From a virus (taxonomy: Duplodnaviria > Heunggongvirae > Uroviricota > Caudoviricetes): a DNA stretch of 7,334 nt. The stretch is taken from the IMG/VR virus record IMGVR_UViG_2639762982_000003. One strand, 5' to 3'. This document shows, in pieces, positions 176 to 7,164 of this stretch (position 1 is its first letter; the number at the start of each line of letters is the position of its first letter). The translations under genes were made by a program, and so were the position numbers. A model generated the notes under the pieces. The model saw only the letters and a list, made by a program, of their open reading frames with translations, ran no database searches and was not told the origin of the DNA.

Positions 176-526
176 TCAATTGATGCGTTCGCGCGCTGTT
201 TTTGCTTTATGGCAGGGCCAGCACAGACTCTGCAGGTTACTGTCTGCATCCGTGCCACCATGAGCTTTCGGAATGATGTGGTCCACAGTTCTGGCTTCAA
301 CAGCTCTCCCATTGCGCAGGCAGTTCTGACACAGATGATTATCACGCTTCAGTATGCGCGCACGTATGGCATCCCATTTCGAGCCATAGCCACGCTGGTG
401 GCGGCTCAGTCCGCGCTGGTGCTGCACCCAGCCTTCACCCCAATGTTTATCGCAGTAGCCCGAACTGTCTGTTGTTGTGCCTGCGCAGCCTCGCTTACGA
501 CATGCGCGGGGGATTCGTGATGGCAT
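176..526 (-). CDS. HNH endonuclease, phage terminase-associated (HK97 gp74-like)
   Basis: 116-aa ORF from the track with ATG at 524-526 and TGA at 176-178. Contains C-x2-C pairs (HLCQNC) and a D-H...N...C-W-P-C-H motif (DHIIPKAHGG...SNLQSLCWPCH) typical of zinc-binding HNH nucleases. It is the last gene of the minus-strand late operon, where lambdoid/HK97-like phages carry an HNH next to cos and terminase. Confidence 0.8.
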   Translation of the reverse strand: MPSRIPRACRKRGCAGTTTDSSGYCDKHWGEGWVQHQRGLSRHQRGYGSKWDAIRARILKRDNHLCQNCLRNGRAVEARTVDHIIPKAHGGTDADSNLQSLCWPCHKAKTARERIN

Positions 527-947
527 GGAACTTCGTTCTCCAGCGATTAAAACGTTTCTCTCTCGGGGATAACATGTATTGCATTCAGTCCCGCCGCCAC
601 AGCGTGCTGATTATGTTCATTGACAAGCTGCATTGTTTCATCAAGCAATTCACGACAGCGATTTGCATTCGTTTCGATGCTCAGCACCAGTGAATGACCC
701 CCACACAACCGCCCATCCAATAAAAATGGAGAGTCAGCAGAAACAATTTCCGATTTTATGGGGTCAGTTCAACGGAAGGGCTGCTGTAATGCTGTGGACA
801 ATACTCCTTTTGTCGCTTACTGGTTGAATATCCTGGTTTTTATGCGCTTTATCCATTGTTAAAATACAACCTCAGCCCTCCAGTGTTCGGACACTGTGTG
901 AACAATGAATAAGAGCCTTGGCTGACGGCTCCGCAAAAGGAATGACA

Positions 948-1157
948 ATGACAAGCTTTAATATAAATTTAAATGTAACAACAAAGGTTGAAACCATTTC
1001 TGACGTAGCTTTAGAAATTTCCCGTTTAAAAGTTACGATTGGAATATTATTGGCTAAACTACCTCCAGAACAGCGTGATTCATTCATTGCAGATCTAAAA
1101 GGCCTCGGGCTTAATGAAGAGGCCAGCTTATATAGTAATTTCAACCCAAAGATATAA
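948..1157 (+). CDS. hypothetical small protein, AT-rich moron-like gene opposite to the late operon (bor-like position)
   Basis: Plus-strand ORF (track 918..1157 starts at TTG). ATG at 948 is preceded by AAGGA at 937-941; alternative ATG at 942. Stop TAA at 1155-1157 is followed 25 nt later by a strong intrinsic terminator. AT-rich relative to neighbours. No recognisable family from sequence alone. Confidence 0.5.
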   Translation: MTSFNINLNVTTKVETISDVALEISRLKVTIGILLAKLPPEQRDSFIADLKGLGLNEEASLYSNFNPKI

Positions 1158-1181
1158 TCTGAATCCATCGTTTACAGGAGC

Positions 1182-1210
1182 GGGGAGGGAGCACCTCCCC
1201 CCTTTTCTTT
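1182..1210 (+). terminator. rho-independent terminator of the plus-strand small gene
   Basis: 7-bp stem GGGGAGG (1182-1188) / CCTCCCC (1194-1200) with a 5-nt loop, followed by CC TTTTCTTTATTT. The opposite strand has no T-run, so it is unidirectional. Confidence 0.6.
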
Positions 1211-1395
1211 ATTTGGTGTATGTAATATTTCCTTTTAAGTAAAACGCTCCCGTATTATCAAATGCGCCCTCAGGTTTTTTATTGAGAATTTTTAATAATT
1301 TTGACTTCATAGCAATATTAAAAATCTTTGGGAAAAGAAACATATTTCCTCCTGAATAAATATGCGAGGATGAATTGAGTTCACTTTATCTAACC

Positions 1396-1575
1396 TCACT
1401 GCATACACTGCCGGATGCCATCAATCAGTTGGCAGGCCTGAGAAGCAGCGTCAAAAAACTGGCGCGCCTTATCCAGGCTAACGCATCCCGCCAATAAAAA
1501 AGGCACCAGTATCGCTACCAGTGCCCATTTCGCCGCCGTTCGCGGCATTCTGTGTGTCCAGTGTTTTCTGCTCAT
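1396..1575 (-). CDS. small lipoprotein, lysis-associated (possible Rz1/o-spanin-like)
   Basis: ATG at 1573-1575, 14 nt after the endolysin stop, with AGGTG upstream. N-terminus MSRKHWTHRMPRTAAKWALVAILVPFLLAGC has a positively charged n-region, a hydrophobic core and lipobox L-A-G-C (signal peptidase II type). Only about 29 residues remain after the Cys. The track ORF 1396..1647 is an N-terminally extended version. Confidence 0.55.
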   Translation of the reverse strand: MSRKHWTHRMPRTAAKWALVAILVPFLLAGCVSLDKARQFFDAASQACQLIDGIRQCMQ

Positions 1576-1589
1576 AACACACCTGGTTA

Positions 1590-1967
1590 TCAGCGTTTCA
1601 ACTGAAAGTGAGGCCCGTCTTTCAGTGTTTTCCAGTCCCCGCCCCATTCGATGGCAGTTCCCAGCTCTGCGGCAGCCTGCTTAAATGCCTGCGCGATTTT
1701 CTCGTACAGAGGCCAGTCCCATGACACCTGGCTGCCAATGTAGGCCACAACATCCACCGCATCACCGGTCAGGTGGCGGCTGTTCATGGTCTGGCTTTTC
1801 CCTTCCGCGACCAGCTGTTTCTGGCGATACTTACTGCGCAGGCCTTCCGTAATACCGAAATCAACCTCCGTCAGTTCCAGCGCACGGCGAACGACAGCAA
1901 CCAGCTGTGGTTTGACGCCCTCCAGATTCTTTTCGCTGCGACGACTAAATCTGAATTTACCCGACAT
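1590..1967 (-). CDS. endolysin, peptidase M15 family (phage T5-type L-alanyl-D-glutamate endopeptidase)
   Basis: Track ORF 1590..1973 begins at GTG; ATG at 1965-1967 has GAGGTGA just upstream. N-terminus MSGKFRFSRRSEKNLEGVKPQLVAVVRRALEL and the SRHLTGDAVDV zinc-binding motif match T5-type M15 endolysins as recalled. No signal peptide. Its start overlaps the stop of the upstream membrane-protein gene. Confidence 0.85.
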   Translation of the reverse strand: MSGKFRFSRRSEKNLEGVKPQLVAVVRRALELTEVDFGITEGLRSKYRQKQLVAEGKSQTMNSRHLTGDAVDVVAYIGSQVSWDWPLYEKIAQAFKQAAAELGTAIEWGGDWKTLKDGPHFQLKR

Positions 1968-2245: not shown

Positions 2246-2627
2246 TGCCGCCTCCTCCACCCCGCAGGCGGGAGAACAGGCCGGACACCAGCGATGCAAT
2301 ATCCTGCTGGTGGATGAACGACAGAATCTTCACCGACACCACTGACACCAGCACTGCACACAATGCGTCGACAGGCGCTCCGTCAAACCCTGTATGCTTT
2401 ACCAGCCAGGATGCCAGAACCTCTGCGCCCAGCACACCGATAATGAACGACACCAGAAAATGCGCCGCCACACGCCAGGCTGAAAGCGCCTGCGGCATCG
2501 TTGCCACAAATAACGCCCCGGCGAACGCACCAAACACAATCCCGAAATCCGTTCCGGTAAACAACCCGTACACCGTCGCCCCGCCGAGCGCCGCAGCCGT
2601 GCCGGAACCGGATAAGGGTTCAGACAT
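2235..2627 (-). CDS. holin-like membrane protein (first lysis gene)
   Basis: 130-aa product starting at ATG 2625-2627 (internal Met of track ORF 2235..2693) with AGGAGA 6 nt upstream. Three predicted TM segments and a charged C-terminus (RLRGGGGGNVK). Overlaps the start of the next gene by 11 nt. The track's 5' extension runs through a terminator hairpin and is rejected. Confidence 0.6.
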   Translation of the reverse strand: MSEPLSGSGTAAALGGATVYGLFTGTDFGIVFGAFAGALFVATMPQALSAWRVAAHFLVSFIIGVLGAEVLASWLVKHTGFDGAPVDALCAVLVSVVSVKILSFIHQQDIASLVSGLFSRLRGGGGGNVK

Positions 2628-3284: not shown

Positions 3285-3359
<75 letters not shown>

Positions 3360-3362
3360 ATA

Positions 3363-3438
<76 letters not shown>

Positions 3439-3440
3439 AC

Positions 3441-3517
3441 TGGACCGCCACCGGGGACTCGAACCTCGCACACTCAACTTAAAGGGTTGACGCTCTTTCC
3501 TGATGAGCTAGTGGCGG
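3441..3517 (-). tRNA. tRNA-like gene, anticodon loop CCUUUAA (UUU, Lys, in canonical register); non-canonical, possibly a pseudo-tRNA
   Basis: 77-nt cloverleaf: acceptor CCGCCAC/GTGGCGG, U8 A9, D-stem GCTC/GAGC, perfect 5-bp anticodon stem TCAAC/GTTGA, T-loop TTCGAGT, encoded CCA. Position 33 is C rather than the near-universal U, and the T-stem has an A-C mismatch. Confidence 0.5.
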
Positions 3518-3518
3518 C

Positions 3519-3594
3519 TGGTGGCCCTTGCTGGATTTGAACCAGCGACCTGGCGATTATGAGTCGCTCGCTCTCACCACTGAGCTAAAGGGCC
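3519..3594 (-). tRNA. tRNA with anticodon CAU, ileX/ileZ-like (tRNA-Ile2 read as AUA after lysidine modification, or elongator Met)
   Basis: 76-nt cloverleaf: acceptor GGCCCTT/AAGGGCC, D-stem GCTC/GAGC, anticodon loop CUCAUAA (CAU), T-stem GCTGG/CCAGC, T-loop TTCAAAT, discriminator A, encoded CCA. Closely resembles E. coli ileX as recalled. Separated from the next tRNA by 1 nt. Confidence 0.75.
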
Positions 3595-6472: not shown

Positions 6473-6865
6473 CTACTGCCCTGTTTTAACGAAGTTTTTA
6501 AAGGAAACAACTGCCTGATAGGGGTTTGGTTGACAGCCAAACATATTATCGCAAAAAGGCTTGATGAAAATTCTTGAGGATCCATCTTCATTTGGCATTT
6601 TACTCACTTGATAAGCGAGGAATGGACTATTTGGAGAGGGATTATAAGTGGAAATTAGCGTGTCTGTCGCCGTTTGAATTTTCCATGAGGAATTATTAGC
6701 CAACCAGAATTGCGCTCGTTTCCAATAAAAGTCACATTGCTTTTCATCATTACATGTTAGTGGCTTCATTGCTTCTGCTTTCAACGCTGGATCGACCTTT
6801 GCTGCACACCCTCCCAACATTACTGTTGCAATCATTACACCTGCAACTAAAACAAGTTTCTTCAT
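6473..6865 (-). CDS. secreted lipoprotein, AT-rich moron-like cargo gene
   Basis: 130-aa ORF with ATG at 6863-6865 and GGGAG upstream. N-terminus MKKLVLVAGVMIATVMLGGC is a classic SPase II signal with lipobox LGGC. The mature part has four further Cys in two C-x5-C pairs. AT-rich relative to flanking genes and bracketed by two similar terminator hairpins. Confidence 0.7.
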   Translation of the reverse strand: MKKLVLVAGVMIATVMLGGCAAKVDPALKAEAMKPLTCNDEKQCDFYWKRAQFWLANNSSWKIQTATDTLISTYNPSPNSPFLAYQVSKMPNEDGSSRIFIKPFCDNMFGCQPNPYQAVVSFKNFVKTGQ

Positions 6866-7008: not shown

Positions 7009-7164
7009 TTACTCCTCAGGTTCGTAAGCTGTGAAGACAGCGACCTCCGTCTGGCCGGTTCGGATTCGTACCTCGCAGAGGTCTTTCCTCGTTACCAGTA
7101 CCGTCACTATGACGGTTAAACAGATGACGATCAGGGCGATTAACATCGCCTTTTGCTGCTTCAT
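7009..7164 (-). CDS. hokD: Hok family type I toxin (HokD/RelF)
   Basis: 51-codon minus-strand ORF not in the track (below its length cutoff): ATG at 7162-7164, TAA at 7009-7011, AGGAGA 9 nt upstream. Translation MKQQKAMLIALIVICLTVIVTVLVTRKDLCEVRIRTGQTEVAVFTAYEPEE matches the Hok/Gef family and essentially E. coli HokD as recalled. Confidence 0.9.
   Translation of the reverse strand: MKQQKAMLIALIVICLTVIVTVLVTRKDLCEVRIRTGQTEVAVFTAYEPEE

Follow-up and report, generated by a model that had tools for sequence, protein, structure and literature searches.

A small antisense gene behind a conserved leader in the late region of a lambdoid prophage: a probable 'reverse moron'

What is a single AT-rich gene doing on the plus strand of a prophage late region in which every neighbouring gene is read from the minus strand? 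The gene in question, at 948-1157, encodes a protein of 69 amino acids (aa) and lies in the window, by which we mean the whole 7,334-nucleotide (nt) stretch of IMG/VR virus record IMGVR_UViG_2639762982_000003 (Caudoviricetes). We consider it probable (about 0.7) that the region is a 'reverse moron', a self-contained unit placed antisense in the Q-dependent late operon of an HK97-like lambdoid prophage, from which a binding protein is expressed in the lysogen. Morons as a kind, and the relatives of HK022 gp23 to which this protein belongs, are known; the more interesting part is the module common to unrelated cargo. The features of the unit are as follows.

857-865, plus strand: candidate extended -10 element TGTTAAAAT, with TAAAAT at 860-865 preceded by TG, as read from the sequence.
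872-947, plus strand: conserved 5' leader of about 75 nt, comprising TCAGCC (872-877), hairpins P2 and P3, and the Shine-Dalgarno (SD) sequence AAGGA (937-941).
879-898, plus strand: hairpin P2, with the loop UUCGGA in the window.
913-917 with 927-931, plus strand: hairpin P3, whose loop carries GGCUGA (920-925), complementary to TCAGCC at 872-877.
948-1157, plus strand: coding sequence of a 69-aa cytoplasmic protein (7.6 kDa, isoelectric point 5.2) of the HK022 gp23 ('Srb')/phrog_6806 family.
1182-1211, plus strand: intrinsic terminator of the gene, GGGGAGG-GAGCA-CCTCCCC followed by a T-rich tract.

Comparison with its homologues indicates that 948-1157 encodes a real protein under purifying selection. 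The prophage of Escherichia coli CV839-06 is 100% identical to the window, and in that region the RefSeq annotation, made by the Prokaryotic Genome Annotation Pipeline (PGAP), has WP_042634360.1 as the sole plus-strand coding sequence. The ratio of nonsynonymous to synonymous divergence (dN/dS) against an 88%-identical copy is 0.106 (dS 0.65, dN 0.069), and the protein matches phrog_6806 over its full length (residues 1-69 on a 70-position profile, E = 4.8e-31). An exhaustive HMMER search of 1.8 billion representatives gave eight clusters at 50% identity, all of 71-73 aa, and a profile search gave 47 homologous clusters at 90% identity, mostly of 66-76 aa, the remainder being a few 85-107-aa proteins and two short fragments. 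Those clusters with a named source are all labelled 'hypothetical' and come from Enterobacterales (Escherichia, Citrobacter, Salmonella, Enterobacter, Cronobacter, Raoultella, Pantoea, Xenorhabdus, Photorhabdus and others), while a single-protein search of genome contigs produced one doubtful actinomycete match. At 35-55% identity the family keeps its length, its hydrophobic pattern and the eight residues that are invariant in the 10-sequence alignment A1 (E23, K28, G32, K37, R43, G54, F65 and P67). ATG-948 is the preferred start because the SD AAGGA sits 6 nt ahead of it; the upstream ATG-942, which has no spacing to the SD, yields the 71-aa form seen in some databases. An overlapping minus-strand open reading frame (ORF) of 98 aa at 872-1168 was rejected as a gene, having no family match in Pfam or PHROG.

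An earlier sequence-only reading of this DNA had picked out 948-1157 as its sole convincing plus-strand gene, AT-rich, without a signal peptide, and lying between the lysis genes and the HNH/terminase region against the late operon. Each of these points is borne out: the gene by the RefSeq call and the phrog_6806 match, its placement by the minus-strand neighbours, its composition by a GC content of 34% against 52-58% in the flanks (200-nt windows over 800-1400 give 30-42% and the island at 760-1398 gives 0.30-0.45), and the lack of a signal peptide by the absence of a hydrophobic N-terminal segment, the highest 15-residue Kyte-Doolittle mean being 1.42. That reading had also held the product to be unplaceable in any family, and here it has to be corrected. 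Aligned as profiles, HK022 gp23 and the window protein give an hhalign probability of 96.6% (E = 6.5e-10, 31% identity over 59 columns), and HK022 gp23 itself matches phrog_6806 (E = 3.9e-8).

The leader was first noticed, by lining up DNA, as non-coding sequence shared upstream of divergent homologues. For its analysis we used alignment A3, which holds 73 distinct leaders collected by a DNA pattern that fixes part of the leader sequence. RNAalifold predicts from A3 a long-range helix, P1, formed by TCAGCC and GGCUGA and enclosing P2. When the pairs of P1, P2 and P3 are counted together 93.8% of cells are paired, against 25-47% with the partners slid by 1-3 columns, and the observed covariation score was reached by none of 500 shuffles. 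P2 contributes 15 double changes from U-A to C-G with 6 U-G intermediates, and at another of its pairs 45 sequences have U-G, 14 have U-A and 11 have C-G. On the opposite strand such G-U pairs would turn into A-C mismatches, so the structure belongs to the sense RNA. In P3 an SD-like arm (AGAGG or GGAGG) is paired with an anti-SD-like arm (CCUCU), and four of the six pairs have changed on both sides in compensatory fashion; stem variants include AGCC/GGCU in the window and CAGCG/CGCUG at locus L015. The window leader represents a diverged subgroup in which the P3 register is off by one column. As the 3' strand of P1 lies inside the P3 loop, the two must be either pseudoknotted or mutually alternative, and folding of single sequences gives P1 with P2 or P2 with P3.

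A covariance model of the leader, R1, finds one copy only in the window (870-954, 49.7 bits, E = 2e-10), and it also matches the diverged leaders of L015 and L016, two loci to which the protein, not the DNA pattern, had led. All the parts by which a leader cassette is recognised, i.e. TCAGCC, P2, P3 with its GGCUGA loop, and an SD some 20-26 nt after GGCUGA, are present in the window. Rfam 15 returned nothing better than E = 0.69 over 700-1450 and no match to the leader in four consensus loci, and the matching E. coli and phage records carry no RNA annotation at this position; the leader appears to be undescribed as an RNA element.

Two other accounts of the leader were set aside. A conserved leader peptide ('MADYL', from ATG-GCT-GA in P3) was rejected, the start codon being absent in 11 of 88 cassettes and the length varying between 3 and about 80 codons. 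A leader of the CsrA type, recognised by its GGA motifs, is unsupported, as the GGA of the P2 loop was fixed by the search patterns and is absent from the independently found L015 and L016. We record that an invariant ATGGCTGA in most P3 loops opens a mini-ORF, often MADYL and a stop codon, right after the SD-like arm, and that its equivalent in the window is TTG-918, which is in frame with the main ORF and would give a 79-aa alternative.

The leader is far more widespread than the 69-aa protein. The DNA pattern TCAGCCCNNCANNGNNNGGANNCTG-N8-38-GGCTGA occurs in at least 120 IMG/VR contigs, and 28 reference phage records carry the module; a metagenome scan with a loose pattern gave mostly chance matches and about 10 true cassettes. 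Varied small ORFs follow the motif at a distance of 20-26 nt, after an SD of the AAGGA type; they encode 73 distinct proteins, mostly of 65-100 aa, in 20 clusters unrelated by BLAST (a lower bound, to be read as at least 20), the 69-aa family being the largest. Pfam matches are confined to two cargo clusters (DUF1883 and a retropepsin-like domain). The possibility that the other clusters are hidden relatives of the 69-aa family was rejected, their local hhalign probabilities all lying below 6%. Cargo genes are AT-rich throughout (median GC 0.40), and beyond roughly 50-100 nt past the stop codon the flanks are common to cassettes with unrelated cargo, which indicates that essentially only the ORF is exchanged. 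As the small ORFs that follow this one leader are of 20 or more unrelated kinds, the module has the look of a portable expression cassette in which one cargo is exchanged for another.

The setting of these cassettes is equally consistent. In 92 of 104 both large neighbouring ORFs lie on the opposite strand, and the neighbours, to judge by their sequences, are most often tape measure proteins or tail genes similar to lambda L and M. Every homologue of the 69-aa protein with a readable late-operon context lies antisense to the operon, whether between the lysis cassette and the small terminase with differing endolysin and terminase types (P0003, P0004 and P0005), just downstream of Q (P0008), or between the tape measure gene and a downstream tail gene (Salmonella phage SW-37); the L015 homologue is on a short contig showing no phage genes. 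The 69-aa family and the leader alike are found mostly within tail gene clusters, and the position corresponding to lambda bor is not its characteristic home.

Some prophages contain two leader cassettes with different cargo about 2 kb apart, as at 2242-2325 and 4294-4377 of L033, and 3654-4052 of L147 provides another example. In a set of E. coli genomes (H110-H145, including LF82, NC101 and an O25:H4 isolate) only the part with -10, TCAGCC and P2 is matched, over 53 nt at 88.7% identity, for instance at 1192298-1192350 of LF82 NC_011993.1, where there is no annotation; such partial cassettes may be a diverged leader type or a relic.

How the unit came to lie in this window can be read from related prophages. 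RefSeq annotation of the CV839-06 counterpart describes, on the minus strand, a lambdoid late region in the order hokD, DUF968, RusA, Q, four tRNAs, two holins, M15 endolysin and a 59-aa hypothetical protein, followed by the region of interest, HNH, a P27-type small terminase, the large terminase and HK97-type head genes. The features that bound or accompany the insertion are these.

176-526, minus strand: HNH gene (RefSeq), which with the small terminase gene (terS) flanks the island on the packaging side.
547-720, minus strand: 5'-truncated remnant of a late-strand gene at the left island edge, covering phrog_4827 profile positions 43-95 of 96.
760-1398, no strand assigned: AT-rich inserted island (moron module), at a variable site between the lysis cassette and HNH/terS.
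1209-1343, minus strand: unannotated 44-aa ORF, convergent with the 69-aa gene, with the SD AGGAGG 5 nt before its ATG and its end at the shared hairpin.
1396-1575, minus strand: gene for a 59-aa predicted lipoprotein (phrog_7528; lipobox LLAGC in the translation) on the right flank of the island, downstream of the endolysin gene.
1590-1967, minus strand: M15 endolysin gene (RefSeq).

Homology to related prophages ends at 538 or 759 on the left and restarts at 1399 on the right, and in L004 a mere 36 bp replaces window positions 539-1398. Other relatives have different small genes at the site, including another plus-strand gene in L005, whose homology stops at 759. Of 5426 complete E. coli genomes just 18 contain the whole island, and more than 1200 have the lysis or HNH genes that flank it. 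An intact 98-aa phrog_4827 gene is present in L005, L006 and L008; the segment at 547-720 corresponds to its C-terminal half, and insertion or replacement has therefore removed the 5' end. Taken as a moron in the sense of Juhala et al. (2000), as restated in PMC3594210, the region consists of extra DNA between genes that are adjacent in relatives, its gene differs in base composition from the surroundings, and it has a terminator of its own, by sequence prediction. The view reached earlier, of an autonomous AT-rich unit opposing the late operon at a site equivalent to that of lambda bor, is upheld by the near-empty site in L004 and by the other genes found there elsewhere.

The terminator hairpin (1182-1200) has seven pairs, six of them G-C, and is followed by CCTTTTCTTT; its predicted fold has an energy of -18.6 kcal/mol (z = -2.1), and read on the minus strand it has no T tail. 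At the other end of the unit, 86 of 88 distinct related cassettes have a hexamer of the form TAnnnT 6-7 nt ahead of TCAGCC, the best version being that of the window subgroup, TAAAAT with a preceding TG. Both the strong terminator and the promoter-like TAAAAT at 860-865 had been pointed out in the sequence-only reading; both are there, and the latter stands at a position conserved across the cassettes. No canonical -35 was found ahead of the candidate -10 in the cassette comparison, and a generic promoter scan of the window did not list the TGTTAAAAT site. Many cassettes, though not that of the window, have further upstream a hairpin that reads as a late-strand terminator and is annotated as such in HK97 and ES18. 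Three other candidates in the upstream sequence were dismissed: a CAGGGT...ACCCTG repeat as an RNA hairpin, which shows no compensatory changes in the alignment; a LexA box over ACTG-N9-CAGG, whose spacing in the alignment is wrong; and an integron attC-like core, as GTTAAGG misfits GTTRRRY and there is no integrase nearby.

The protein itself offers a predicted structure. AlphaFold2 (AF2), run with a 9-sequence alignment, gives a model with a mean predicted local distance difference test (pLDDT) of 86, in which helices span residues 17-36, 40-52 and 56-63 and residues 1-16 are extended with an alternating hydrophobic/polar pattern. Structure prediction and profile searching, the check proposed with the sequence-only reading, thus delivered in part: they yielded a three-helix bundle and the hhalign link to HK022 gp23, and no specific fold match. 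The top matches of a profile search against PDB sequences, DC-SIGNR and protein A, were set aside as summed weak matches to tandem repeats. Nor is there a toxin-antitoxin or other fixed partner gene, a candidate rejected on the finding that the neighbours of family members are mutually unrelated; those on the late strand encode 44, 57, 59, 79, 99, 103 and 488 aa, with a single weakly related pair. By analogy of architecture only, the product is most likely a small soluble cytoplasmic binding protein made in the lysogen, and its role most likely phage exclusion or defence.

We infer that the unit is expressed in the lysogen, and propose that it would work as follows. Host sigma-70 RNA polymerase would transcribe it, the transcript beginning at or near TCAGCC, so that a base-paired 5' end together with the leader structure might stabilise the mRNA and make its translation independent of context. 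The product, with its three helices and N-terminal strand-like segment, would bind a protein of the host or of an incoming phage and might thereby protect the lysogen from other phages or serve another function in lysogen fitness. On induction, convergent Q-antiterminated late transcription would lower expression, as experiments have demonstrated for phi80 taiEcA. A wider proposal, which we advance only tentatively and rate at rather less than even odds, is that the leader is a portable cis-acting 'moron leader' RNA, with a paired 5' end, a possible TCAGCC/GGCUGA pseudoknot and an SD/anti-SD hairpin. In enterobacterial lambdoid prophages it might serve universally to express and regulate a rapidly changing pool of small proteins, unrelated to one another and at least 20 in number, the cargo being swapped by recombination between the conserved leader and the conserved late genes next to it and the near-invariant loops providing a site for one co-regulating host or phage factor.

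Several results weigh against a lysogen-expressed moron with a structured leader. The covariation counts rest on an alignment gathered with a pattern that fixes part of the leader; in particular, the TCAGCC and GGCUGA strands of P1 are almost invariant and were themselves fixed by the search, and a second scan that left them free found one-sided changes only, of which C to U retains a G-U pair and G to A or A to U breaks a terminal pair. The stability of the leader is unexceptional (z = -0.3 to -1.9). In most cassettes the -10 fits the consensus at just four of six positions, and with no recognisable -35 as well, expression could therefore need an activator. For the protein, Pfam and NCBIfam scans gave sub-threshold noise only, no specific fold matches the model, and none of nine family members matches PADLOC-DB 2.0, a 2023 library that cannot include Tai.

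The promoter evidence is also what lends substance to one rival explanation, in which the gene belongs to the lytic or early phase (e.g. in anti-defence or host takeover) and the leader is a regulatory switch recognised by some factor of the phage or the host. Besides the missing -35 and the weak -10 of most cassettes, the leader loops are almost invariant (GGGA in P2, GAUGGCUGAUUA in P3), a conservation beyond structural need that suggests a specific binding partner, and two alternative folds are predicted, P1 with P2 or P2 with P3. Convergent Q-driven transcription would, however, oppose late expression, no candidate regulator co-occurs with the cassette, and AT-richness, an own terminator and antisense placement are the classic signature of a lysogenic moron; we regard a lytic role as improbable. 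Slightly better placed, though still unlikely, is a defence and self-immunity pair on the lines of phi80 TaiEcA/AtiEcA, the 69-aa protein being the inhibitor in the lysogen and the product of the 44-aa ORF (1209-1343) neutralising it during the phage's own lytic cycle. The geometry is that of phi80 (PMC11364771), where a small late-strand gene adjoins an antisense gene just upstream of the packaging module; a strong SD (AGGAGG) precedes the 44-aa ORF, and in HK97, HK022 and ES18 too the reverse moron converges with a 'moron' gene on the late strand. Against such a pair, the late-strand neighbours across the family have nothing in common beyond the one weak pair, PGAP does not call the 44-aa ORF, whose sole family match is a weak one (phrog_36389, E = 0.06), and the 69-aa protein, at 7.6 kDa against 26 kDa for TaiEcA, has no sequence link to it and no PADLOC match. 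In its own right the ORF is possibly a late-strand companion gene, or else spurious.

A third rival would make the protein a small DNA-binding regulator of ribbon-helix-helix (RHH) type, in which the N-terminal strand FNINLNV pairs in a dimer to control host or phage promoters. This segment recalls FNLRW of Arc, the hydrophobic/polar alternation of residues 4-10 is conserved in the family, AF2 extends residues 1-16 at the lower confidence expected of a strand that forms only in the dimer, and there are weak sub-threshold matches to sigma-70 region 4. No RHH or antitoxin family of Pfam or NCBIfam is matched, however, the nearest PDB sequence match being aRelB at E = 0.25, and we consider this the least probable of the three, by our estimate a very long shot. 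A moron expressed from the prophage remains the explanation we prefer.

Other features of the late region deserve mention. The 59-aa lipoprotein of phrog_7528 may be a spanin-like lysis component, and a terminator-like hairpin (1526-1501, minus strand) lies inside the signal-peptide coding part of its gene. In L005, L007 and L008 further insertions part this gene from that of the endolysin (1232-1841 in L005), one of them bringing another plus-strand gene, of 89 aa and without an R1 leader, which makes the interval a second insertion hot spot. In L009 a partial match to the Rfam sRNA family STnc100 (2302-2396, minus strand; 39.5 bits, below the gathering score of 47), at the high-coordinate end of the locus, is cut by the contig end beside the last ORF of the lysis cassette; the window holds no equivalent at the Rfam threshold. 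Upstream of the Q region are a 130-aa predicted lipoprotein of phrog_16082 (6473-6865, minus strand) and a hokD-type type I toxin gene (7009-7164, minus strand, by PGAP), with no sok-like RNA at the Rfam gathering score in the window. Four clustered tRNA genes (3285-3594, minus strand) between Q and the holins have the anticodons Gly-UCC, Thr-UGU, Lys-UUU and CAU, the last being Ile according to PGAP. They would read GGA, ACA and AAA, plus AUA if the CAU tRNA is lysidine-modified. The AT-rich 69-aa gene uses three ACA, three ATA, three AAA and one GGA codons, and the prophage may therefore supply tRNAs that fit its AT-rich cargo.

Temperate phages alter their hosts chiefly through morons, yet most small moron genes are uncharacterised and their expression from a silent prophage is usually just assumed. 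The leader gives a sequence handle, as DNA pattern or covariance model, for finding such genes and is one concrete regulatory element to test, while HK022 and HK97 lysogens are tractable systems for the function of the 69-aa family.

Of the known systems, lambda bor was the comparison made from the sequence alone. That gene lies just downstream of the lysis genes, on the strand that opposes the late operon, and is presumed to be expressed from the prophage; Bor is an outer-membrane lipoprotein. The window gene resembles bor in its position past the lysis genes and in its strand, and to that extent the comparison stands; the proteins are not related, since the window product has no hydrophobic N-terminus, no cysteine lipobox, no Pfam match and no sequence similarity to Bor. 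In phi80 the antisense moron taiEcA sits immediately ahead of the packaging module; the lysogen expresses it, less so when Q drives the late operon, and the late-strand counter-defence gene AtiEcA adjoins it in a non-contiguous operon (He et al. 2024, PMC11364771). Like taiEcA, the window gene interrupts a Q-controlled late operon just upstream of the packaging module, whereas Tai, which inhibits tail assembly, is a 26-kDa protein with a defined partner gene and the window protein is unrelated to it in sequence and has no conserved partner. HK97 gp15 is a further moron of the late (tail) operon, in a phage of the same group; according to PMC3594210, citing Cumby et al. (2012), it has its own promoter and terminator and acts from the prophage in superinfection exclusion; gp15 is there an inner-membrane protein, in contrast to the window product, for which no membrane segment is predicted.

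The designation 'reverse moron' goes back to depositors' annotations, HK97 gp23 being a 'reverse moron product', HK022 gp23 an 'srb protein; moron gene product' and ES18 gp25 a 'possible moron'; all three are antisense within tail genes and stand behind the same module. ES18 gp22, a further plus-strand 'possible moron' in the tail region, has no R1 match. A literature search, whose coverage did not extend to the original genome papers (Juhala et al. 2000 and that on ES18), found nothing relevant for 'reverse moron' or the leader sequence and no published function for HK022 gp23 or the window protein. HK022 gp23 (NP_037683.1) is of the same family as the window protein (73 vs 69 aa), has the same upstream leader (R1 93 bits vs 49.7) and is likewise antisense to the late genes. 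It differs in its site, between tail genes I and J, where it overlaps the convergent late-strand gp22; the window copy differs in turn by a diverged promoter region, the AGCC/GGCU stem of P3 and the lack of an upstream late-strand terminator hairpin. HK97 gp23 and ES18 gp25 have the same cassette (R1 57 and 84 bits), again antisense, with small AT-rich cargo and a terminator of their own, whereas the cargo itself (86 aa in HK97; 95 aa, phrog_10490, in ES18) is unrelated in sequence to the window protein.

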